64,000 bases of DNA from an uncultured Bacilli bacterium. Its GTDB lineage: Bacteria > Bacillota_I > Bacilli_A > RF39 > UBA660. The translations under genes and the position numbers were made by a program. The stretch is taken from NCBI GenBank assembly GCA_910587775.1, contig CAJUNF010000001.1, forward strand, positions 34,770-98,769. The letters run 5' to 3'. This document shows positions 13,503-58,300 of this stretch, piece by piece. A model generated the notes under the pieces. That model was not told where the DNA came from. It searched no databases and was given only the letters and a program-made list of their open reading frames with translations. How positions within the stretch are numbered: position 1 is the first letter of the stretch; the number at the start of each line of letters is the position of its first letter.

Positions 13503-14515
13503 TCTTCAAATTTCCTTTCTTCTGCTTCTTTAAATATTGGCAATAATCCTGTGTTATTTTTTCGATGTGGTGGTAAACCATAAATATCATGTCCAGGAAA
13601 TTCATTTGCTTCTATGAAAAAGCATTTTTCTTTCCCAACGCAAACATCCCATCCAACATAACCAACTTGAGGAATTTCAAGTGAAGCATTTTCACATAAT
13701 TCGATTATTTCTTCAAACCTTGGTATTTCTAATCCTACAATTGTTTTTTTTGTTAATGGATGAGATTCATAAAGGTTTCCTGATTTATCAATCGCTGGAT
13801 ATATGATTTTTCCACTTTTTAACTCAACAGGCACAACCATTCCACCATGATTAAAATTATCTACAGTATTATGATTATTTCCTATTCTTAAGTAACATGC
13901 TACTACACTTCCTAATAAAGTTACTACTCGTAATGTGTTAATACTATCCGGATGAAGATCACTTATTTTTTTACACTGGATTGCAACCTCTTCAATTAAA
14001 GTTTGGTTATTCTCCATTAGTTCTTCATATAAATCTTTTAATTTTCGATTTGAAACGTCTATTTTTTCAATATCTTTACCACATTGTGCTCCAACTGGTT
14101 TTACAATAATATTGTTATGTTTTAAACAAAAGTTGGCAAATTCGTTTTTATTTTTTCCATTTAAATAAAGCCATTCTCGATTTAAATATTTATCAAATTG
14201 TTTATTAAATTCTACTTTATTATGAAATACATGAATAAATTTTGGATCATTATATTTCACCATAAAAGAATTATTTATTCCTCTTGTAATTATAGTTTTT
14301 CTTTCAAAATTGTTCATATTATACATTTCAAATAATGCATAGTCCATATATCCAGCTTGATACTTAAATCCACAATTTATCATATCAATAAAGATAATAA
14401 ACCGACTTTTTTTTGTTTTTTGATGAACTTCATTAATTACTCGAAAAAAAGAGCTAAAGTCCATATTAATAATACGTTTTATTATATATTTTATTTTTGC
14501 CATATAAATCTCCAA
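13499..14515 (-). CDS. sugar-transfer-associated ATP-grasp family protein (ATPgrasp_ST-like)
   Basis: The C-terminal region reads RIGNNHNTVDNFNHGGMVVPVELKSGKI...HPLTKKTIVGLEIP...VGYVGWDVCVGKEKCFFIEANEFPG. This matches the conserved ATP-grasp_ST pattern. Confidence 0.5.
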   Translation of the reverse strand: MEIYMAKIKYIIKRIINMDFSSFFRVINEVHQKTKKSRFIIFIDMINCGFKYQAGYMDYALFEMYNMNNFERKTIITRGINNSFMVKYNDPKFIHVFHNKVEFNKQFDKYLNREWLYLNGKNKNEFANFCLKHNNIIVKPVGAQCGKDIEKIDVSNRKLKDLYEELMENNQTLIEEVAIQCKKISDLHPDSINTLRVVTLLGSVVACYLRIGNNHNTVDNFNHGGMVVPVELKSGKIIYPAIDKSGNLYESHPLTKKTIVGLEIPRFEEIIELCENASLEIPQVGYVGWDVCVGKEKCFFIEANEFPGHDIYGLPPHRKNNTGLLPIFKEAEERKFEE

Positions 14516-14565
14516 TAATATTATATCACGATCTTAGCTTTCTTGAAATATAGTGTTTATCAAAT

Positions 14566-14595
14566 AAAAAAAGCTTATGCAGCTTTTTGGTTTAA
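14566..14595. terminator. bidirectional terminator overlapping the rpmE stop
   Basis: AAAAAGCT, a TATGC loop, then AGCTTTTT. This is an 8-bp stem flanked by an A-run and a T-run. Confidence 0.45.
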
Positions 14596-14787
14596 ATTAT
14601 ATTTACGGTTAAACTTTTCAATATTACCAGTTCTCTTGGCATTTCCTTGTTTTCCTGTATAGAATGGATGACATTCGCTACAAATTTCTACATCAATCTT
14701 TTCTTTTGTAGACATAGTTTTAAAAGATGCTCCACAAGCACATTTTACTTCGATTTCTTTCATTTCAGGATGAATGTTTGCTCTCAT
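14575..14787 (-). CDS. rpmE: 50S ribosomal protein L31
   Basis: MRANIHPEMKEIEVKCACGASFKTMSTKEKIDVEICSECHPFYTGKQ carries the CxxC...CxxH zinc ribbon of L31. The start is set at ATG 14787, which has an AAAGGAG RBS 8 nt upstream, rather than the longest ORF. Confidence 0.85.
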   Translation of the reverse strand: MRANIHPEMKEIEVKCACGASFKTMSTKEKIDVEICSECHPFYTGKQGNAKRTGNIEKFNRKYNLNQKAA

Positions 14788-14967
14788 AATCAATCTCCTT
14801 TCGCCATACCTAAATTTAGGCATAGTAATTTCATTTCTAATGTATTATATCATAGATTCTCTTGGTTGCAAGTGAAAAAACTACTATTTTAATTATATGT
14901 TGCATTAATTTTTTAAATACATTAAAAATGTTTTTTAAGCAAATTTATTTATTGTAAAGTTTTTTAC

Positions 14968-15477
14968 TTATTTTATATGTAATATATGCTTTATTTTTCC
15001 AGCAAAAAAAACTAAACTATCACTCTTTTTCATAGCGATTTGTTTACCAACTGCCTTTCCCCCAACTGTTAATGCTGAAATTAATGAAGTTACTAATACT
15101 GTGATCCATATCGCATTTGCATTTAATTTTAACGTAATATAAGCTGTTAACACTGCTCCCAGAGATCCACTTACAATTCCACAAATATCTCCTATTACAT
15201 CATTACAAACACTTGAAACAACATTTCCATTTCTTAATAAAGAAATAGATTCTTTTGCACCAGGTATTTTTTTGGCAGACATGGCATGAAATGTCGCTTC
15301 TTTACTTGTTAGTGCTGCAACTCCTATCATATCGAATAGAATTCCTATTAAAATAACTATAATCATAATCATTAATAGTATAAAAACATTCATATCACTA
15401 CAAAAGCTAGTTAAAGCACTAAAAATTGCTGCTAAGAAAAAAGATAAGAAAAAAACCTTTAATGGCCAAAATTTCAT
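14968..15477 (-). CDS. oapA: small four-TM membrane protein with a DxxxD motif; candidate OLE-associated protein A (OapA)
   Basis: 169 aa with about four hydrophobic helices. The motif NDVIGDICG (D-x-x-x-D) lies in a membrane segment. The RBS AAAAGGAG is 7 nt upstream. It is immediately downstream of a ~530-nt structured, higher-GC noncoding region that has its own promoter. Confidence 0.5.
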   Translation of the reverse strand: MKFWPLKVFFLSFFLAAIFSALTSFCSDMNVFILLMIMIIVILIGILFDMIGVAALTSKEATFHAMSAKKIPGAKESISLLRNGNVVSSVCNDVIGDICGIVSGSLGAVLTAYITLKLNANAIWITVLVTSLISALTVGGKAVGKQIAMKKSDSLVFFAGKIKHILHIK

Positions 15478-15499
15478 AATACACTCCTTTTAACATTTT

Positions 15500-16028
15500 A
15501 CCATGAAAAAAGATTCTTTTTAAGAACCTTTTTAAGCTACAATGGTTTTTGTTGTGGTAAATTATAAATTAATTTTACGGCTTAGGTCGAGTTGAATTTC
15601 TCTACTTTCTACCTTTGGTTACCCGAGGGCGATTTCTCTTTCAAGAAAGCAACTAAGTGTTACCATCTTAATTACTCGATTACCACTGAGTCCGCACTTT
15701 AATCCTTATAATTATAACATTCTAGAGGTTTTCCCTGACACTCACTATCCAATAATTATTCGCTTTTGCAAATACGATTTTGATAACCATCTAATTTTAG
15801 ATTCATTCGTTATCTCCCACGCATTCACTCACGACATGCACTTTTTTTATTTCTTGCGGGATTTCAGGAGGTTCATTATATGCCATTATAACTTTCCTAA
15901 AATCTTAAATTATATAACCGCCCCAACTTGGGCAGAAGAAGCGAATTATATAAAGTGCTTTCATGCAATTAGTAGATTTTTAGCCCTACCTTCATATTGT
16001 GTGTGTGACTAGAATAATGCACCACATG
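15500..16028 (-). ncRNA. ole: large structured noncoding RNA candidate (OLE-like RNA), about 530 nt
   Basis: No ORF on either strand. GC is visibly higher than the surroundings. It has a consensus sigma-A promoter (TTGACA-17-TATAAT). It lies directly upstream of, and is co-oriented with, the DxxxD membrane protein. It shows no tmRNA features (no GGGG start, no CCA end), no RNase P P4 motif (GGAAAGUCC) and no T-box features. Confidence 0.4.
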
Positions 16029-16029
16029 G

Positions 16030-16064
16030 TTAAGGATTATACACTATTTTTGCGTATTTGTCAA
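16030..16064 (-). promoter_or_regulatory. consensus sigma-A promoter driving the noncoding region and oapA
   Basis: Minus-strand TTGACA (16064-16059), a 17-nt spacer, then TATAAT (16041-16036). Confidence 0.55.
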
Positions 16065-16080
16065 ATTTGCCAGTTTTTTT

Positions 16081-16764
16081 CTAGTTATTAATTGTTGCTA
16101 GAATTCTATTTGATATTTCTTTATGACCTTTGTAATTTAAATAATAACTGTTGTTTAAAAGAAAAAATTGTGGATTTTCTATCAAGTTTTCTGTATCAAT
16201 ATAAATTATATGATATTTTGTAGCTATACTTTTTAAATGAGAATTAATACTATTTAATTCTTCATCTGTAATATTATATGCTTTGTAAAGTCCTAATAAA
16301 TATATTTTTTTATCATTAAAATTGCGAATTAGTTTTAGCATATGTTCTATATCTTTTTTATAATCTTCAATTTCTTTTGTCGGAATATTGGCTTTTAGAG
16401 ACATATTGGCTAATTCATCTAATCCAATCCCAATTGTAATAATAGAAGATTTAGATAACGCTTGTTGTATTGTAAGGTTTGCTTCTTCTAATAAATAATT
16501 ATTTTCTATGGTTGTAATTAAGTTTTCAATAGTTTGATCCGTTTTAGAAAAACCAGAAATATATTTTTCTAATTTATGTTCTGATTCTAAATAGTCTCTT
16601 ATGTAATCGTTATAGCTATATCCTTCTACATTATAAGCTGTCATACCTGTTGCAATTCCATCACCAAGTGATAAAAAGTAAATGTTTTTATTTTCATTTT
16701 GTTGATAAATATAGAATGTTATTAAAATTCCAACTAATATAATTAGAAATATCTTTTTTTTCAT
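16081..16764 (-). CDS. SGNH/GDSL-like hydrolase with an N-terminal membrane anchor
   Basis: 227 aa. An N-terminal TM helix is followed by FLSLGDGIATG, a GDS-type block I. Confidence 0.5.
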   Translation of the reverse strand: MKKKIFLIILVGILITFYIYQQNENKNIYFLSLGDGIATGMTAYNVEGYSYNDYIRDYLESEHKLEKYISGFSKTDQTIENLITTIENNYLLEEANLTIQQALSKSSIITIGIGLDELANMSLKANIPTKEIEDYKKDIEHMLKLIRNFNDKKIYLLGLYKAYNITDEELNSINSHLKSIATKYHIIYIDTENLIENPQFFLLNNSYYLNYKGHKEISNRILATINN

Positions 16765-16799
16765 ATTTCCCCCAAAAGAAAAGTAGAGACTCTTCTCTA

Positions 16800-18056
16800 C
16801 TAATTTATGTCATGTAATTCGATTTTAGCACCCACATTTGTTAACTTTTCTACTATTTTCTCGTATCCCCTTAAGATATGATCAGCGTCATTTATAATTG
16901 TATTACCTTCTGCAATTAATCCTGCAATTACTAAAGATGCACCAGCTCTAAGATCAGATGCTACTACTGTTTGCCCATGTAAATTTGTTGGGCCATTTAT
17001 GTATATAGTTTGTTCTTTAACTGTCATATCTGCTCCCATTTTATTTAAATATGGAACATGTCCCATACGATTTTCATATATTGTTTCTTCAAAAATAGAA
17101 GTACCATTACATTGTGATAATAATACACTCATAGGTTGACCCCAGTCCGTTACAAAACCAGGAAACACTAATGTTTTTACATTAATTGCTTTTAAAGATT
17201 CATGACCATGGATTGTAATTTCATTATCTTTTATATCCATTTGTACTCCAGAAGCTATTAATTTTGATAATAAAGCATCTAAATGTTCTTTTACAATATT
17301 AGTGATTTTAAGTTCTTTTCCAATTAGAGATCCTAATATTAAATAAGTTCCTGCTTCAATACGATCAGGTAAAACTTCAATTTCTGCTTTGTGTAAATAA
17401 TCTACACCATCAATTATAATTTTATCTGTTCCAGCTCCAGTAATTTTGGCTCCCATATTATTTAAAAAATTAGCAACGTTTATAATATCTGGCTCTTTAG
17501 CTGCATTTTCAATAATAGTTCTTCCTTTTGCTTTAGTTGCGGCAAGCATTATATTAATTGTTGCTCCAACACTTGCAAAATCAAGAGGAATTGTTGCACC
17601 TTTTAATTCTTCGGCATGTAATACGTATTTATCATCTACTTCTTCAATTGTTGCACCTAATAATTGAAATCCTTTTAGGTGAAAATCGATTTTTCTATTC
17701 CCAATATTACACCCACCAGGAAAATAAATTTCAACATGTTTTTTTCTTCCTAAAAGGGCTCCCATAAAATAATAACTTGCACGTAATTTACTAGATAGTG
17801 ATTCAGGTATTGTTGCATTTTCAATTTGAGAAGTATCAATTTCTAAAGTCGATCCATTTTCTGAAACTTTTCCATTTAATAGTTTTATTATCTCTACTAA
17901 AGCAGATTTGTCTGATATATTTGGGACATTTGTAATAGTTAGTTGTTCATCACATAAAATACTTGCGGGTATTAAGGCAACTGCAGCATTTTTCATTCCA
18001 GAAATAGCAATAGTACCAGAAAGAGTGTTTCCCCCTTCAATTTTAATTTGTTTCAT
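16800..18056 (-). CDS. murA: UDP-N-acetylglucosamine 1-carboxyvinyltransferase
   Basis: MKQIKIEGGNTLSGTIAISGMKNAAVALIPASIL... shows full-length MurA architecture at 418 aa. Confidence 0.9.
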   Translation of the reverse strand: MKQIKIEGGNTLSGTIAISGMKNAAVALIPASILCDEQLTITNVPNISDKSALVEIIKLLNGKVSENGSTLEIDTSQIENATIPESLSSKLRASYYFMGALLGRKKHVEIYFPGGCNIGNRKIDFHLKGFQLLGATIEEVDDKYVLHAEELKGATIPLDFASVGATINIMLAATKAKGRTIIENAAKEPDIINVANFLNNMGAKITGAGTDKIIIDGVDYLHKAEIEVLPDRIEAGTYLILGSLIGKELKITNIVKEHLDALLSKLIASGVQMDIKDNEITIHGHESLKAINVKTLVFPGFVTDWGQPMSVLLSQCNGTSIFEETIYENRMGHVPYLNKMGADMTVKEQTIYINGPTNLHGQTVVASDLRAGASLVIAGLIAEGNTIINDADHILRGYEKIVEKLTNVGAKIELHDIN

Positions 18057-18123: not shown

Positions 18124-18672
18124 TTATTTCAATAAATGAGAAATTCCAATCACTATTAAAAGTAATGCTCCAAAAAAACTAGCATATACTCCTAGTATTT
18201 TATTAGCGTATTTTCCAATTAATAATCCTAGTAATGTAAAGAAAAAACTTGTTATAGAAAATGTAAGCATTGCTAAAATGATGTTATTTGTTATAGCTGT
18301 TAATCCAAGTCCAGTAGAAAAAGCATCAATGGAAACACCAATAGCAAAGAAAAGCATTCCAAAAATACTAAAATCAATCGTAGTTTCTTCTTTTACAAAT
18401 ATTTCATATAGCATTTGACCTGCTATAAATATTAAAATAATTCCTAGTAATAAATTACTGTTAATTTGAAAGAAGTTTCTTAAATTTTTGCCAATTATAA
18501 TTCCCAAACAAGGCATGATAAAGTGCATAATTCCTACTATACCTGATAAGGCTAGACTTTTTTTCTTTGAAAGACTACATGTACCTAAACCTAGAGATAG
18601 TGAAAATGTGTCCATACTTAAAGCAACTGCAATTGTTAAAATTGTAATAATTTCAATCATAAAAAAAGTCAC
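18124..18672 (-). CDS. mntP: manganese efflux pump MntP (DUF204 family)
   Basis: Six TM helices. Two ALSMDTFS / GVSIDAFS-type repeats are characteristic of MntP/YebN. The start may instead be the internal Met (MIEIITIL). Confidence 0.7.
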   Translation of the reverse strand: MTFFMIEIITILTIAVALSMDTFSLSLGLGTCSLSKKKSLALSGIVGIMHFIMPCLGIIIGKNLRNFFQINSNLLLGIILIFIAGQMLYEIFVKEETTIDFSIFGMLFFAIGVSIDAFSTGLGLTAITNNIILAMLTFSITSFFFTLLGLLIGKYANKILGVYASFFGALLLIVIGISHLLK

Positions 18673-32786: not shown

Positions 32787-33104
32787 TTATGACAAAAGAT
32801 CTAAAAGCATTTGTTCTAATTCTTCTAATTTTGCTTCTTTGGTCTTTTCTTTCATTATTATAATATAATCTAAGCCGTTTTGAAACTGTTTCTTTTGATT
32901 TGTCAAGATAACTCTCATACGACGTTTTAGTTTATTACGAAAAACAGCATTGCCTAATTTTTTTCCAACTGCTATTCCAAATCTAGAAATATGTAAATTG
33001 TTTTTCCTTATATATATATTATAGTATTTATTTTTTAGACATTTACCTTGTTCAATAACACTTCTAAATTCTTCATGGGTTTTTACTATTTCATATTTTT
33101 TCAT
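32787..33104 (-). CDS. rnpA: ribonuclease P protein component
   Basis: MKKYEIVKTHEEFRSVIEQGK...RNKLKRRMR is the RNR motif region. The start is set at ATG 33104 with an AAGGA RBS. The longer ORF beginning MAFFIKG was rejected. Confidence 0.8.
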   Translation of the reverse strand: MKKYEIVKTHEEFRSVIEQGKCLKNKYYNIYIRKNNLHISRFGIAVGKKLGNAVFRNKLKRRMRVILTNQKKQFQNGLDYIIIMKEKTKEAKLEELEQMLLDLLS

Positions 33105-33144
33105 ATGATCAATTCCTTTTATAAAAAAAGCCACATATCGTGGT

Positions 33145-33267
33145 TTATTTACATAATTGTTTGCGTCCTTTTCTTCTTCTTCTTTTTAAAATATTTGTTT
33201 CTTTACGTGCGAAGAAGCCATGTTTTTTCGCTTTTTTGCGATTATTTGGTTGATAAGTTCTTTTCAT
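33145..33267 (-). CDS. rpmH: 50S ribosomal protein L34 (40 aa). It is not in the ORF track.
   Basis: Minus-strand ATG at 33267 with an AAAGGAGG RBS. It encodes [40 protein letters not shown]. The L34 N-terminal signature is MKRTYQP..RK..K.HGF. TAA stop at 33145. Confidence 0.75.
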
Positions 33268-33340
33268 ATTTGTACCTCCTTTTTCCTTAAAGCTCCCTTA
33301 TTATAAACTTACCACTATTAAAAAGTCAAGAAATAACGGG

Positions 33341-33446
33341 TTATACACAAATTCACATTGATGTTTATAAGATTACACATTATCAACGTTGATAATTATT
33401 CTATGTTGATAATTTCTAAAATCAAAGTTGTGGATAATGTTGATAA
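33341..33446. promoter_or_regulatory. oriC DnaA-box cluster upstream of dnaA
   Basis: One perfect TGTGGATAA at 33429-33437. One-mismatch boxes are TTATACACA (33341), TGTTGATAA (33404) and TGTTGATAA (33438). Weaker matches are TTATCAACG (33380) and GTTGATAAT (33388). Confidence 0.6.
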
Positions 33447-33582
33447 CTATATTTTTATCTGTTAGAATATGAAACCAAGACTGTTTATAAATTGTTAATT
33501 ATGTGTGAATTGTTCTTTCGTACTTGTTTTTAAAATCACAACTGAGTTAAAATGAAGTTGATAAAACGTGAGGGATTGTGGG

Positions 33583-34971
33583 GTGAAGTGGTTGAAAACA
33601 GAAACCGAAACATTATGGCAAAATTTCTTAGATCTTATTTATAAAGAAATCAACGCAGCTTCATTCCATGCGTGGTTTCACGATTTACTTTTACTTAGTA
33701 TAGATCGTTATCAACATAGTATTAAAATTCAGGTACCAATGGAAATTCATCGTAGAATTCTTGGTGAAAACTACTATTCACTCATTGAAGAAACTTTTTT
33801 AAAACTAACTGGTATTACTTTTGATATTGAATTTTTATTAGAAGAAGAAAAAGAAACAATTGTGGATAACTTTCAAAAAGAAATTATTTCTGATGAAAAT
33901 ATTCCTAATGTTATTGCAAAAGATTGGGAATCTAACTTAATTCCAGAACTTAATTTTGATAATTATGTAGTTGGAGATTCTAATCGACTCGCTAAAGTTG
34001 CTGGTATGGCTGTTGCTGAAGCACCTGGCAAAATACATAATCCTTTGTTTATTTACGGAAAAAGTGGACTTGGTAAAACTCATTTAATGCATGCTATTGG
34101 TAATTATATTGTTGAGCATTCTAATAAAAAAGTATTGTATACAACTAGTGATATGTTTATGAATGATTATACTGGAATTGCGAACTTAGAAAATAAAAAT
34201 AATACCGTTGAATACGCGAATAATTTTAAAAATAAATATCGTAATGTTGATGTTTTAATTATTGATGATATTCAATATTTAGTTGGGGCAGAGAAAACAC
34301 AACAAGAATTCTTTCATACATTTAATGCCTTACAACAAGCAAATAAACAGATTATTATAAGTTCTGACCGATCGCCAGATGATTTAAAATTATTAGAAGA
34401 ACGTCTTCGAAGCAGGTTTATGTGGGGATTGCCTGTGGATATCTATCCTCCAGATTTTGAACTTCGTTGTAAAATTATAAAGCAAAAAGTCAAAAATACC
34501 AGTATTGCTAATAAACTTGATGAAACTGTTGTTGAATTTATCGCAAATAGTTGCCAAAATGATGTAAGGTTTTTGGAAGGAACTATAAATCGTTTAATGG
34601 CTTATACTGCTATGGTCGTTCCTGATCATATTGATCTAGAATTTGCTAATGAAGCTTTAAAGGACTTTATTAATAAAAATATTTATTCAGAAAATAGTAT
34701 TGAGGGGATTCAGAATGCAGTAGCAGAGTATTATAATATTACGATTGCTGATCTTAAAGGAAAGAAAAAGAGTGCTAATATTGCTTATCCAAGGCAAATA
34801 GGAATGTATCTTTGTAGAATGCTAACTGATGAAACTTTTCCTAGAATTGGCTTAGAATTTGGTGGAAGAGACCATTCTACTGTAATTCATGCTTGTGATA
34901 AAATTGAAAAGGATTTAAAAACGAATCCGACACTATCAAATACATTAAAAGAAATTAAAAATAAAATATGA
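33583..34971 (+). CDS. dnaA: chromosomal replication initiator protein DnaA
   Basis: The AAA+ Walker A is GKSGLGKTHL. The C-terminal domain IV is ...IGLEFGGRDHSTV. Start candidates are GTG 33568 (longest), GTG 33583 (GAGGGA RBS) and TTG 33592. Confidence 0.95.
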   Translation: MKWLKTETETLWQNFLDLIYKEINAASFHAWFHDLLLLSIDRYQHSIKIQVPMEIHRRILGENYYSLIEETFLKLTGITFDIEFLLEEEKETIVDNFQKEIISDENIPNVIAKDWESNLIPELNFDNYVVGDSNRLAKVAGMAVAEAPGKIHNPLFIYGKSGLGKTHLMHAIGNYIVEHSNKKVLYTTSDMFMNDYTGIANLENKNNTVEYANNFKNKYRNVDVLIIDDIQYLVGAEKTQQEFFHTFNALQQANKQIIISSDRSPDDLKLLEERLRSRFMWGLPVDIYPPDFELRCKIIKQKVKNTSIANKLDETVVEFIANSCQNDVRFLEGTINRLMAYTAMVVPDHIDLEFANEALKDFINKNIYSENSIEGIQNAVAEYYNITIADLKGKKKSANIAYPRQIGMYLCRMLTDETFPRIGLEFGGRDHSTVIHACDKIEKDLKTNPTLSNTLKEIKNKI

Positions 34972-34972
34972 T

Positions 34973-35100
34973 TGTGGATAAATATTTAAAAACTGGATAG
35001 GAATTCACATCAGAATTTTAAAATCTGCTTAGGAAATATCAATGATTTGAAACCTATGCACATTATAAACTGTATTATTATAATTAATATTAAATTAATA
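34973..35100. promoter_or_regulatory. dnaA-dnaN intergenic oriC half: a perfect DnaA box plus an AT-rich candidate unwinding element
   Basis: TGTGGATAA at 34973-34981 lies 1 nt after the dnaA stop. A near-pure A/T run at about 35065-35100 precedes dnaN. Confidence 0.45.
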
Positions 35101-35120
35101 AAAAGAAAGAAGGAAACAAA

Positions 35121-36239
35121 ATGAAATTTTCAATTGATAAAAATATAATATTAGAAAACTTAAGTAATGTAATAAAAGGGGTATCTACAAAAAATGTGAT
35201 TCCAGTATTAAATGGAATTAAATTTGAATTACGTAGTGAAGGTTTGTATTTAACTGCAAGTGATTCTGAATTAGTCATTCAATCTTTTATTGAACGGAAA
35301 TTAATTAAAAATGTAGAAACTGAAGGAGTTATTATAATTGGTAGTAAATATATTTTAGAAATTTTACGAAAGATGCCAAGTGATGTTATTAACTTTGAAG
35401 TTATCGACAGTTTAAAAATAAAAATTTATTCTGATTTTAATCAATATAATTTAAATTGTTTAGATCCTAGTGAATATCCTAATTTAAGATTAGAAGAACA
35501 CAAAGATCCAATTGTATTACAAGGAGATTTATTTAAAACAATTATTAATCAAACAAGTTTTGCTATTTCAACACAAGAACTTCGTCCGCTTTTAACAGGT
35601 GTTAATATTAAAATAACTGGGGATCTTTTAGAATGTATCGCAACAGATTCTTATCGACTTGCAAAGAAGAACATTAAACTTGATACGCCAGTCTTAACAG
35701 ATATTAACATTGTAATTCCAGGAAAAAATATTATAGAATTAGAGAAAATTATTGTTGATAACGAAAACATAGAAATGCATATCTTTAATAATAAAGTTTT
35801 ATTTAAATATAAAAATATTATATTTCAAACTAATTTATTATCAGGAACTTATCCGAATACTTCTAATTTAATTCCTACTGAATTTGAAATTATCGTTCAA
35901 ACTAAAAAAGAAGAATTTGCATCTGCCGTTGATCGTGCTGCTTTGTTAACACAAGGGAAAGATAAAAATATCATAAAAATGCGCATTGAGAATAAAGAGA
36001 TGGTTATTAATTCTTATGCATCTGAAATAGGTAAGACAGAGGAACGTTTGATTGTTGAAACAAGTGAAAATTCAAATATTGATATTTCTTTTAGTGCAAA
36101 ATACATGTTAGAAGCTTTAAAAACTTTAAAAGATGAGGATATTTTAATTTTACTTAACAATGATGTTAAGCCAATAGTTATGAAATCATTGAAAGATGAG
36201 TCATTAATTCAGTTAATTTTACCAATTAAAACATATTAA
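35121..36239 (+). CDS. dnaN: DNA polymerase III beta sliding clamp
   Basis: 372-aa protein with a three-domain beta-clamp layout. It is in the conserved position after dnaA. Confidence 0.95.
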   Translation: MKFSIDKNIILENLSNVIKGVSTKNVIPVLNGIKFELRSEGLYLTASDSELVIQSFIERKLIKNVETEGVIIIGSKYILEILRKMPSDVINFEVIDSLKIKIYSDFNQYNLNCLDPSEYPNLRLEEHKDPIVLQGDLFKTIINQTSFAISTQELRPLLTGVNIKITGDLLECIATDSYRLAKKNIKLDTPVLTDINIVIPGKNIIELEKIIVDNENIEMHIFNNKVLFKYKNIIFQTNLLSGTYPNTSNLIPTEFEIIVQTKKEEFASAVDRAALLTQGKDKNIIKMRIENKEMVINSYASEIGKTEERLIVETSENSNIDISFSAKYMLEALKTLKDEDILILLNNDVKPIVMKSLKDESLIQLILPIKTY

Positions 36240-36324
36240 GACATGAAAATGTCTTTTTTTTGACATTTTTTTCATAAGTTCTGTATTAATATAAGGCCAA
36301 TTTTCCAAGTCAGGGGGTGAATTA

Positions 36325-36783
36325 ATGGAAAATTATGAGATTAATACAGAAACACTTGCTTTAATTTCTTTAAAAAATAAAACAGAGGTATTTGAAGAAA
36401 ATGATCATTTTTTTATTGATAAAGTAGCAAATGAAATTATGGAATCAAGTTGTGAGTATTTTGGAAGTTCATTATCAGGAAGACAGAAGGGAACTGAGCG
36501 GTTAATTGGGGTAAGTTATAAAGCTCCAGTTATAGTGGAAGAGACAGAAGAAATGATTTTTTTTCCGACTGAATCTCCTAGAAATGACAGTTGTTCTTGG
36601 ATTTCACTTCAAAAGATTAATAAATATTTTCGATGTGGAGAAAAGATGGTTATTGAATTTAAGAATGGAAGTAAAGTAGTTTTAGATTTATCATATGGAA
36701 AGCTAGATAATCAAGTTTTACGTGCAACTCGATTGGAGTCTGTTTTAAGAGGGCGAAAAAGCAATAAAAATAGTTTTAAATAA
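36325..36783 (+). CDS. comK: ComK-family protein (competence transcription factor fold)
   Basis: CEYFGSSLSGRQKGT aligns with B. subtilis ComK CRFFGSSYAGRKAGT. KAPVIVEETEEMIFFPTESPRNDSCSWIS aligns with KPPIMVDPSNQIFLFPTLSSTRPQCGWIS. FKNGSKVVLDLSYGKLDNQVLRATRL aligns with FSNGKTMELPISYNSFENQVYRTAWL. Confidence 0.7.
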   Translation: MENYEINTETLALISLKNKTEVFEENDHFFIDKVANEIMESSCEYFGSSLSGRQKGTERLIGVSYKAPVIVEETEEMIFFPTESPRNDSCSWISLQKINKYFRCGEKMVIEFKNGSKVVLDLSYGKLDNQVLRATRLESVLRGRKSNKNSFK

Positions 36784-36868
36784 GCTATTCGTGTGATATA
36801 ATGTTGATAGGTATAGAGGTACATATATACCTATTATTTTTGTATATGGCTTAAAAAGAGGCAAAATT

Positions 36869-39884
<3,016 letters not shown>

Positions 39885-39894
39885 GAGGTAGAGT

Positions 39895-42360
39895 ATGGAT
39901 AGAATAATTGAAAATAATATTGTTAATGAAGTAAAAGATTCTTTTTTAGATTATGCTATGAGTGTTATTACAGCTCGTGCTTTACCAGATTTGCGTGATG
40001 GATTAAAACCTGTTCATCGTCGTATTTTGTATTCGATGTATGAATCTAGTTATACTCCTGATAAACCTCATCGTAAAAGTGCAAGAATTGTTGGAGATGT
40101 AATGGGAAAATATCATCCTCATGGAGATTCTTCTATTTATGATGCAATGGTTCGTATGGCACAACCTTTTAGTTTCCGTCATATGCTTGTAGATGGACAT
40201 GGTAATTTTGGTAATATGGATGGCGATGGTGCCGCTGCAATGCGTTATACAGAGGCAAGACTGTCAAAGTTATCTCTTGAGATGATAAGAGATATTAATA
40301 AAGAAACAGTAAATTTTAGTCCGAATTTTGATGAAACAGAGAAAGAACCTGAAATTTTGCCTAGTAGATTCCCTAATATTTTAGTAAATGGAACTATGGG
40401 AATTGCAGTTGGAATGGCTACTAATATACCTCCACACAACTTGGGTGAAGTAATTGATGGTTGTGTAGCTTATATTGATAATCATGAAATAACAACTGAT
40501 GAATTAATGCAATTTATTAAAGGTCCAGATTTTCCGACTGGAGCGACTATTTTAGGTAATAGTGGTATTAAAAAAGCTTATGAAACAGGTCGTGGATCAA
40601 TCACAATTCGTGGAAAAGTTGAAATTGAGGAAAATAATGGCAGATCTCGTATTATTGTTACAGAATTGCCATATCAAGTGAATAAAGCTGAATTTCAGTC
40701 ACGTATTGGAGAACTTGTTAGAGATAAAATTATTGATGGTATTAGCGAATTACACGAGGAATCTAATCTAGAAAATCCAGTGCGAGTTGTTATTTATTTA
40801 AAAAGAGATGCAAATGCAAATGTTGTTTTGAATAATTTGTATAAGCATACACAGTTACAAACAACTTTTGGTATTAATTTCTTGATGTTAGATCAGCAAT
40901 CTCCTAAAATTTTACCATTAAAAGATATTATTTCTAAATACATTGATTATCAAAAAGAGATAATTATTCGAAGAACACAATATGATTTGAGAAAAGCACA
41001 AGAACGTGTACACATTTTAGAAGGCTTAAAGATTGCTTTAGATCATTTAGATGAAGTAATTAAGATAATTAGAGAATCTAAAACAGATGTGATCGCAAAA
41101 GAACAATTAATGCAACGTTTTGGTTTAGATGATATTCAAGCTAATGCTATTCTTGAAATGAAATTGCGTCGTTTAACTGGATTAGAACGAGAAAAGATAG
41201 AAAATGAGCTATCGGAATTATTAAAGACTATAGAAGAATTACAAGCAATATTAGCAAGTGAAGAGAAAGTTTTAGCTATAATAAAAACTGAACTTTTAGA
41301 AATAAAAAATAAATATGCTGATGAGCGACGTACAAATATAGATATGACTGCAATTGAATATATTGAGGATGAATCTTTAATTCCAGTAGAAAATATAATG
41401 ATTGCTTTGACAAATAAGGGTTATATTAAACGTACTACTGTAGACACCTTTAAATCTCAAAATAGAGGTGGAGTTGGTGTTAAAGGTATGGGTACAAACG
41501 AAGAAGATTTTGTAGATCATTTAATCAACTTATCCACACACGATTACGCTTTATTTTTTACAAATAAAGGTAAAGTATATAGATTAAAAGGATATGAGAT
41601 TCCTGAATTTAACCGTCAATCAAAAGGATTACCAATTATTAATTTGTTACAAATTGAAAAAGATGAGATGATTAATAGCGTAATAAGTATTGGCAATGAA
41701 CACGATTATAAATATTTATTATTTGTAACTAAAAATGGAATTGTTAAGAAGACTGCTATTAATGAGTTTGATAATATTCGAACATCTGGTAAAATATGCA
41801 TTAATTTAAGAGATAATGATGAGTTAATAGCAGTGAAAAAAACTACAGGAAATAATTTGATATTATTGGGCTCTAGTGCTGGTAGAATGGTTAAATTTGA
41901 TGAAAATGAGCTTAGAGTAATGGGAAGAACAGCAACAGGTGTACGAGGTATTAATTTAACTGAAGCATTCTGTGTAGGTGCAGAAATTGCAACTGATGAA
42001 GATAAAGTATTAATAGTAACTGAAAAAGGATACGGAAAACAAACGAATGTTTGCGAATATAGAGGCACTAAACGAGGAAGTAAAGGAGTAAAAGCTTTAA
42101 ATGTAACTGAAAAGAATGGTAATATATCAGCATTTAAAGTAGTTAGAGAAAATCAAGATGTAATAATCATTACTGATACAGGTATGTTAATTAGAATGCC
42201 TTTAGATCAAGTTTCAACTTTAGGTCGTGTTACCCAAGGTATTCGTTTGATTCATTTGAAAGATAATCAAAAAGTATCAACTATAAGCTTGGTGGATCAT
42301 GAAGAAAAAACAACTTGTGAAGATTCATCTATACCAGAAAACTTTTTAGAAGAAGAATAA
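39895..42360 (+). CDS. gyrA: DNA gyrase subunit A
   Basis: An active-site Tyr region ([10 protein letters not shown]), a QRDR and C-terminal beta-pinwheel repeats. 821 aa. Confidence 0.95.
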
Positions 42361-42690: not shown

Positions 42691-42719
42691 TTGATAAATA
42701 AATCTTTATTTGCTAAAAT
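42691..42719 (+). promoter_or_regulatory. sigma-A promoter for the SRP RNA
   Basis: TTGATA (42691-96), a 17-nt spacer, then TAAAAT (42714-19). The TSS is predicted at about 42726. Confidence 0.5.
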
Positions 42720-42723
42720 GTAC

Positions 42724-42803
42724 TTGTGCAACAAATATATTGCAAACTGGTCAGGATCGGAAGATAGCAGCCAATGTAATCCCTGTTTGTGTGCACTTTT
42801 TTT
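42724..42803 (+). ncRNA. ffs: signal recognition particle RNA, short 4.5S-like form
   Basis: GGUCAGGAUCGGAAGAUAGCAGCC matches the universally conserved domain IV motif GUCAGGUCCGGAAGGAAGCAGC. This comprises a GGAA tetraloop and CAGG/AGCAG loops. The 5' end (GUGCAACAAA) pairs with the 3' end (UUUGUGUGCAC) to close a single hairpin, followed by a U7 terminator tract. It lies in the tadA-dnaX neighbourhood, where ffs sits in Bacillus. Confidence 0.6.
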
Positions 42804-42817
42804 ATTGAGGTGTAACT

Positions 42818-58268: not shown

Positions 58269-58300
58269 ATACCATTAAAAAGAATGGGTGGTTTTGAGTT

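Follow-up and report, generated by a model that had tools for sequence, protein, structure and literature searches.

Positions 16041 to 15538 on the minus strand of a 64,000-nucleotide (nt) stretch of DNA from an uncultured Bacilli bacterium (contig CAJUNF010000001.1; the whole of this stretch is called the window below) are, with a probability that we put at about 95%, an OLE (ornate, large, extremophilic) RNA of a short type devoid of the stems P7 and P8, and the next gene, at 14968-15477, encodes its membrane partner OapA. The find is a further example of an OLE sub-type already published in 2024; neither the RNA nor the system is new. A sequence-only reading of this DNA had proposed an OLE-like RNA from an element of ~530 nt, a promoter ahead of it and an open reading frame (ORF) of 169 amino acids (aa) behind it, and all three are present where that reading had placed them.

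When the window was scanned in full against the 4227 families of Rfam, only two matches were obtained, one to OLE and another to the RNA of the signal recognition particle (SRP). The OLE match (RF01071; 16041-15538, minus strand, 504 nt) reached 241.6 bits (E = 5e-67; the gathering score is 50) and spans model positions 1-616 without truncation, so that the proposed identity was borne out by a full-length match. A permissive local search (E <= 1) left this match unchanged, and for the element itself (15478-16080) it returned no family besides OLE and no riboswitch or other cis-regulatory match, such as an M-box. Since nothing further was found inside the element at this threshold, transfer-messenger RNA (tmRNA), RNase P, 6S, T-box and riboswitch alternatives can be disposed of, as the earlier reading had supposed for tmRNA, RNase P and T-box: none reached its gathering score, and at E <= 1 the region added only the leader of a ribosomal protein L31 gene, which is described below. 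The conserved core of the RNA, from the 5' strand to the 3' strand of P1, occupies 16025-15554 (472 nt). The element has a higher GC content than the window, as had been claimed (34.5% vs 27.1%), which places it in the top 2.4% of 504-nt segments, about 2.3 standard deviations above the mean, and this level is equalled by some coding regions, for instance gyrB/gyrA. About 560 nt without any ORF of at least 60 aa separate the stop codon of a GDSL-like gene (16081) from the start of the 169-aa ORF (15477). The assertion that no ORF exists on any frame holds at that length and fails below it, because a 58-aa ORF is present on the opposite strand (15836-16012, plus strand), as is a stop-free antisense stretch of 138 codons; both are most likely by-products of base composition.

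The secondary structure of the family is also recognizable. When the structure of the model was projected on the window, 112 of the 119 pairs shown were present, with 104 canonical, and 177 of the 234 highly conserved (upper-case) positions of the consensus were identical. The covariation alignment consisted of the window OLE and 39 non-identical short OLEs (n=40), with the structure derived from Rfam. In these 40 sequences the 112 model pairs are paired in 88.3% of the cells, as compared with 38-44% when the partners are slid by 1-3 columns, and changes on both sides were detected for 70 of the 112 pairs vs 28-37 with slid partners; in 500 shuffles the observed values of pairing or covariation were never reached. 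More than 150 columns are invariant in this set, highly conserved nucleotides amounting, according to the literature, to about 25% of OLE positions. The window OLE keeps P1-P6, a shortened P9, P10 and the P12-P14.1 domain, with helices held by compensatory changes across the clade.

The names P1 to P3 used here were inferred from the domain description in a 2025 review (PMC12265935), P1 and P2 being missing from the structure line of Rfam. P1 is formed by GUGGUG (16025-16020) with its partner ACCAC (15558-15554), and P2 by AUUCUAG (16015-16009) with CUAGAAU (15725-15719); these two long-range helices are paired in 96% of the cells vs 28-58% with slid partners, and a single P2 pair appears as UA, GC, AU and CG across relatives. 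P3/P3.1, whose 5' strand lies at 15994-16007 and whose 3' strand lies at 15756-15738, forms duplexes of 11-13 base pairs with a mean folding energy of -8.5 kcal/mol over the 40 short OLEs, as compared with -4.3 kcal/mol for shuffled partners, and both sub-helices are visibly compensatory between species. In the 2025 review, P3 is the helix proposed to span the membrane. The P4 hairpin (15971-15990; helix 1, 100% paired, two covarying pairs) carries an A-rich loop, CUAAAAAU, that is invariant in the 40 sequences, and the same applies to the GCCCA loop of P5/P5.1 (15954-15909) and to the UGGC within the AAUGGCAU loop of P6/P6.1 (15904-15860), whose stems covary. The same review describes the P4 loop as a dimerisation contact, and the P5.1 and P6.1 loops as intermolecular kissing contacts, in models obtained by cryo-electron microscopy (cryo-EM). 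The basal helices of P9 (15759-15835, tip shortened) covary, and the 3' domain (15560-15715), which comprises P12, P12.1, P12.2, P13, P14 and P14.1, has helices 11-16 paired in 70-100% of the cells, with many double changes.

The second carrier of the identification is the 169-aa protein encoded at 14968-15477 (minus strand), whose gene is preceded by a Shine-Dalgarno sequence (GGAG, 15487-15484) and starts 61 nt past the end of the OLE match. The description of this product as a four-helix protein with a DxxxD motif proved accurate: four hydrophobic segments can be discerned by hydropathy (roughly 3-27, 30-58, 94-116 and 118-143), and an AlphaFold2 model (pLDDT 83.5) places helices at 4-26, 31-57, 84-118 and 122-150, with basic residues in the loop that follows helix 2 and also in the C-terminal tail. 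The motif is N92-D93-V-I-G-D97-I-C-G (NDVIGDICG), and N-D-x-x-G-D-x-C-G, with D93 and D97 invariant, is found in 28 homologs down to 54% identity. According to Fernando and Breaker (2024, mSphere, PMC11332333), DxxxD is the hallmark that separates OapA from CNNM domains, and OapA groups just below MpfA in searches with CNNM. In line with this, the sole Pfam match of the protein is a sub-threshold one to CNNM (PF01595, 17.4 bits vs a cut-off of 28.4). No NCBIfam model matched it, and a sequence search of the PDB returned nothing at E <= 1, which implies that no OapA structure is matched by sequence. A comparison of the model with the PDB by Foldseek placed MtCorB (7M1T, 7M1U) and the transmembrane domain of CorC (7CFF, 7CFG) first, with TM-scores of about 0.5 and probabilities of 0.8-1.0, the rest being far behind; 7M1U is also given as the top structural match of the OapA of Halalkalibacterium halodurans in PMC11332333. 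The protein has 6655 homologs at E <= 0.001. The family search thus brought no match to an unrelated family, and the assignment to OapA was upheld by the sub-threshold CNNM similarity, the invariant DxxxD, the CorB/CorC-like fold and a position beside OLE in nearly all relatives.

This last point comes from a survey in which the OapA alignment was run against one genome per species of the Genome Taxonomy Database (GTDB), and which returned 80 loci. OLE was found directly upstream of oapA in 78 of them. Two loci, L018 and L086, have oapA homologs without OLE in the flanking DNA that was fetched, and in three others, L028, L064 and L068, the gap between OLE and oapA ranges from about 0.4 kb to 3 kb, being of 2-3 kb in L028 and L068. 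These exceptions indicate that the adjacency of OLE and oapA is very common and not absolute. In five loci on independent metagenome contigs carrying this oapA (L003, L004, L005, L007 and L008), the contig breaks off within OLE, in its 3' part, at a distance of 96-230 nt upstream of oapA, most likely because assemblers break at sequence that is near-identical between co-resident strains or species.

The limits of the transcription unit can be predicted. The sigma-A promoter that had been pointed out ahead of the element (16036-16064, minus strand; TTGACA at 16064-16059, a 17-nt spacer and TATAAT at 16041-16036) scores 12/12, and it is the only perfect match within the 2.4 kb scanned (14500-16900). 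A promoter with a score of 10/12 or more is found at each of the 40 short OLE loci; 39 of them have the 17-nt spacer, the spacer sequences being different, and in every case the -10 box ends 6-13 nt ahead of a conserved GUGGUGCA element. The fact that the promoter is kept in position across 40 loci provides good comparative evidence for a dedicated ole start, which would be expected near 16029, about 4 nt before P1 and the first conserved OLE nucleotides. At the other end, the spacer between ole and oapA contains a terminator-like element (15506-15533, minus strand) made of an A-tract, a hairpin (AAAAAGGUUCUU-AAA-AAGAAUCUUUUUU) and a run of U, with a folding energy of -12.2 kcal/mol and a z-score of -2.3; it was missed by a consensus terminator scan because no more than two G-C pairs are found in its stem. 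The window shares this order of A-tract, hairpin and U-tract with its seven closest relatives, the stem sequences being different, and about 25 more distant relatives have an ole-oapA spacer of 23-40 nt without a hairpin. The hairpin would thus be a weak terminator acquired in the sub-clade of the window, in which case OLE could exceed the oapA mRNA. The predicted primary transcript would extend from about 16029 to about 15506 (about 520-524 nt). A second promoter for oapA (TTAAAA-17-TAAAAT, 15523-15495) was considered and not counted, since it scores only 9/12 and has no equivalent in the ole-oapA spacers of relatives. The gene rpmE, which follows oapA, has its own promoter (14871-14844, minus strand) and an L31-Firmicutes leader (RF03156) at 14825-14795, upstream of its start on the same strand, which scored 30.4 bits vs a gathering score of 33.3 in the window and was above threshold in two relatives, L036 and L015. 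With its own promoter and leader, rpmE lies outside the ole-oapA unit, and the position of the leader sets its start at the ATG at 14787 (70 aa) and not at 14823, the start of the longest ORF.

An arrangement of this kind, in which the element directly precedes a membrane-protein gene of the same strand, with a hairpin resembling a terminator between the two and a product distantly similar to CNNM, a family tied to Mg2+ transport, would also suit a cis-acting leader. The element would then be a riboswitch or attenuator of the M-box type that controls the membrane-protein gene, instead of a stand-alone RNA. We regard this as very improbable. Even at E <= 1 the element is matched by no family of riboswitches or leaders, and its entire 472-nt core matches OLE. 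Termination control cannot be the conserved function, since the ole-oapA spacer lacks a terminator in most relatives. Moreover, OLE lies 2-3 kb from oapA in L028 and L068, and the OLE of H. halodurans is described, in PMC12265935 and PMC9723947, as an abundant RNA that acts in trans and has several protein partners.

The assignment to OLE has to be reconciled with the small size of the window element, which is about 112 nt shorter than the 616-position model. The sequence-only reading had rightly noted that the element is shorter than classical OLEs; its figure of 70-80 nt with respect to ~600 nt was too low. Model positions 198-277 (80 nt), which correspond to stems P7 and P8, are represented by 14 A-rich nt within the linker CCGCAAGAAAUAAAAAAAGUGCAU (15836-15859), and the same gap is found in all 40 short OLEs. 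The distal 26 nt of P9 in the model are reduced to 2 nt, this part of P9 ranging in length from 0 to about 50 nt within the clade, and the small hairpin P11 (model 426-437) is missing. The window OLE therefore has neither the length nor the P7 and P8 stems of a ~600-nt OLE, but this shortness is that of a published variant form and does not exclude it from the OLE RNAs. PMC11332333 sorts the OLE matches in GTDB into three groups: full-length; variant 1, with short P7-P9 and often without the OapB site; and variant 2, which lacks both P7 and P8 and is frequent in RF39 and further uncultured Bacillota of the gut. By its short form and its bit-score class the window OLE fits variant 2, so that its shortness does not point to a new class. 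The relatives fall into the same kinds of classes: short OLEs of 472-519 nt and 212-260 bits occur in metagenome-assembled genomes (MAGs) of uncultured Bacilli, including Mycoplasma sp. CAG:472, whereas full-length OLEs of 610-680 nt and 376-455 bits are found mostly in Oscillospiraceae and related Clostridia. In the 2025 review, which covers the cryo-EM work (PMC12265935), neither P7 nor P8 is a dimerisation contact, and this position outside the dimerisation contacts may explain why these stems can be lost.

The protein-binding sites of the RNA have fared differently. P13 (15672-15652, minus strand) has a GUAA tetraloop of the GNRA type and a single bulged G, and its loop stays GNRA in relatives (GUAA, GCAA, GUGA, GCGA, GAAA). 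Binding of OapB requires the P13 GNRA tetraloop together with a bulge of one nucleotide (PMC7936274), and the predicted OapB site is thus retained in the window OLE. The kink turn (k-turn) bound by OapC consists of J4a/5 (U84, C85, a GAU bulge and G-A pairs) and J5/6 (PMC9723947). In full-length OLEs, the J4a/5 strand reads (A/C)C(G/U)(A/G)UGAA, of the AUCGAUGAAG type, in the five relatives that were readable out of six examined. The window OLE and 39 of the 40 short OLEs have CACUUU(A/G)UAUA in place of this C-GAU-GA strand, the position being just upstream of P5/P5.1, and it is probable that the complex works without OapC in this lineage. The loss of the k-turn strand agrees with a remark in PMC11332333 that organisms with variant OLEs, which have reduced genomes, often lack OapB and OapC. 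A Pfam search of 10 mostly small or unassigned ORFs of the window, including those of a cold-shock protein, ComK, a YabG-like fragment and a Jag-like protein, found no KOW or L7Ae protein, and there is no oapB within the window.

That the element might be a decaying, non-functional OLE remnant in a reduced genome, its lost P7, P8, P11, P9 tip and k-turn being marks of erosion, would accord with its being about 112 nt short, with its 241.6 bits vs the 376-455 bits of full-length relatives and with the reduced genomes, often without OapB and OapC, described for variant-OLE organisms in PMC11332333, but such decay is most improbable given that 40 species-level genomes share the same short architecture, in which 88% of the cells are paired and compensatory changes abound, that more than 150 positions are invariant, that the strong promoter is conserved and oapA intact and conserved, and that P7 and P8 are not dimerisation contacts according to PMC12265935.

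Several points do weigh against the identification as a functional OLE-OapA pair, or at least against extending to it all that has been learnt from model organisms. The locus is known from sequence alone, and its host lineage consists of uncultured gut Bacilli. The relation of the window protein to H. halodurans OapA would run through homologs of 41-47% identity that stand beside full-length OLEs. The strand of the k-turn on which OapC depends in H. halodurans is absent, and with P7, P8 and P11 gone as well and P9 cut, the composition of the complex, and perhaps its function, may be different. Only two G-C pairs hold the terminator together, and more distant relatives do not have it, so that partial termination is put forward here as a proposal. 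Finally, OLE itself belongs to the largest and best conserved of those bacterial noncoding RNAs that await a biochemical function.

A mode of action can nonetheless be suggested by analogy with the organisms that have been studied. Known OLEs bind OapA dimers and localise to the membrane, according to the literature on H. halodurans and cryo-EM work on Clostridium. According to PMC12265935, they dimerise through contacts of P4, P5.1/P6.1 and P9, and the current model has them pass the membrane by means of P3. H. halodurans that has lost the complex becomes sensitive to ethanol and cold, as well as to excess Mg2+ and poor carbon sources. In the organism studied here, transcription would start near 16029 from the dedicated sigma-A promoter, and most transcripts would probably stop at the weak terminator (15533-15506) to give an abundant RNA of about 520 nt, read-through yielding a smaller amount of oapA mRNA. 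By analogy with H. halodurans and Clostridium, the OLE RNA would dimerise and be bound by OapA dimers, and the resulting complex would be held at or in the cytoplasmic membrane. OapA itself would probably act as a divalent-cation transporter similar to CNNM proteins, and the ribonucleoprotein might aid the cell in coping with excess Mg2+ or Mn2+, cold, short-chain alcohols or poor carbon sources. The window OLE keeps the elements for dimerisation, for OapA binding and membrane location and for passing the membrane by P3, with the exception of the full P9 arch, and its mode of action is likely to be the same as in those organisms, probably without OapC.

The genes around the locus are arranged in the order spoIIR, mntP, murA, (GDSL-like), OLE, oapA, rpmE, (ATP-grasp), rpiB, spoIID. 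All or most of this order is kept in about 15 or more species-level genomes, as well as in several metagenome contigs with an identical OapA protein, and its being common to many genomes makes the neighbourhood a trait of the lineage, with nothing peculiar to the genome studied here. The exact oapA sequence was also found in the sequencing runs SRR9276250, SRR10593851 and SRR30018207. The closest genomes are MAGs from the gut of mouse, rabbit, goat, buffalo and human, and they bear the labels Bacilli, Erysipelotrichaceae, Tenericutes or Candidatus Coprovivens. The suggestion that this was a new neighbourhood was not sustained either: it is found lineage-wide in uncultured gut Bacilli, and the categories represented in the murA-OLE-oapA-rpmE neighbourhood match those published for ole-associated genes, which already include cell wall, translation, sporulation, metal homeostasis and central metabolism in PMC12265935. 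Among the papers searched, none names both 'OLE RNA' and 'rpmE'. The window also contains the sporulation and competence genes spoIID, spoIIR, a yabG-like gene and comK. The host would be an anaerobic member of the Bacillota, anaerobiosis being deduced from its gut origin. The genes dnaA, dnaN, recF, gyrB and gyrA are in the window too, with the OLE locus about 18 kb from dnaA and the replication origin region.

Some further features of the window deserve mention. The putative SGNH hydrolase gene upstream of OLE (16081-16764, minus strand) matches GDSL families in Pfam below threshold (27.2 vs 32.9 and 21.6 vs 23.6 bits); its product has an N-terminal hydrophobic segment, and the gene is found at this place only in some relatives (L010, L011 and L029). 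The manganese exporter gene mntP (18124-18672, minus strand) lies three genes upstream of OLE, a place that it keeps in about nine related genomes. In H. halodurans, suppressors of defects in the OLE complex map to Mn2+ homeostasis genes (PMC10898510); the proximity of mntP and OLE may be functional or a coincidence. The neighbourhood of the replication origin (32787-42360) has rnpA on the minus strand and then, on the plus strand, dnaA, dnaN, a comK homolog, recF, gyrB and gyrA, the comK homolog (36325-36783) having an unusual placement between dnaN and recF. Beyond it, the bacterial small SRP RNA (RF00169) was identified at 42715-42811 (plus strand) with 54.6 bits vs a gathering score of 40. 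An open frame of at least 1901 codons (58298-64000, plus strand), with a start resembling a signal peptide and linkers rich in Asn and Asp, probably encodes a giant surface protein; it is missing from the ORF list because it runs past the end of the window.

With regard to its wider meaning, the locus can tentatively, and with considerable doubt, be viewed as a near-minimal natural OLE with a 472-nt core and the OapB site kept, whose autonomous promoter and leaky terminator would set a high ratio of RNA to OapA in the sub-clade, and which would belong to a fixed murA-OLE-oapA-rpmE block situated about 18 kb from dnaA, with spoIIR/mntP on one side and spoIID on the other. If this is true and has not been catalogued already, it would define the dispensable parts of OLE and offer a compact construct for structural work on OLE and OapA. 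Set against full-length OLEs, the window OLE shows which parts evolution retains, namely P1-P6, the loops for dimerisation, the P12-P14 domain and oapA, and which can be lost, namely P7, P8, P11, the tip of P9 and the OapC k-turn. This comparison should be useful for the design of minimal constructs and for the annotation of gut metagenome genomes, in which the region is usually an unannotated gap. The autonomous promoter, the terminator of the sub-clade, the loss of the k-turn strand with the OapB site kept and the place near murA, rpmE and the origin are of modest interest; the locus adds no new class and is a good case of an OLE trimmed in nature, with clear limits to its transcription unit.

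A comparison with known systems situates the window pair among them. As described for variant 2 in PMC11332333, the window OLE has no P7 or P8, keeps other highly conserved nucleotides and falls in the low bit-score cluster, and its host resembles the variant 2 hosts in belonging to uncultured low-GC gut Bacilli, with Mycoplasma sp. CAG:472 and Tenericutes/Erysipelotrichaceae MAGs among its relatives. It departs from the description of variant 2 in that the host keeps spoIID, spoIIR and a yabG-like gene, and the RNA the P13 OapB site. With the full-length OLEs of H. halodurans and Clostridium it shares the predicted framework of P1-P6, P9, P10 and P12-P14.1, the A-rich P4 loop, GCCCA in P5.1, UGGC in P6.1, the GNRA loop and bulge of P13, and an oapA gene immediately downstream. 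Unlike them, it has a core of about 472 nt vs about 580-600 nt, no P7, P8, P11 or C-GAU-GA strand, and a truncated P9 arch. Its ole has its own sigma-A promoter, whereas that of H. halodurans sits in a long polycistronic transcript according to PMC12265935, and its flanks are murA/GDSL and rpmE instead of isoprenoid or DNA-repair genes. The window protein is similar to known OapA in its size of about 170 aa, four transmembrane helices, DxxxD in the third of them, basic loop and C-terminal tail. Its modelled fold appears closest to those of the CNNM/CorB domain, namely MtCorB (7M1T/7M1U) and CorC (7CFF), and the CBS and CorC_HlyC domains that distinguish MpfA, CorB and CorC from it are missing.

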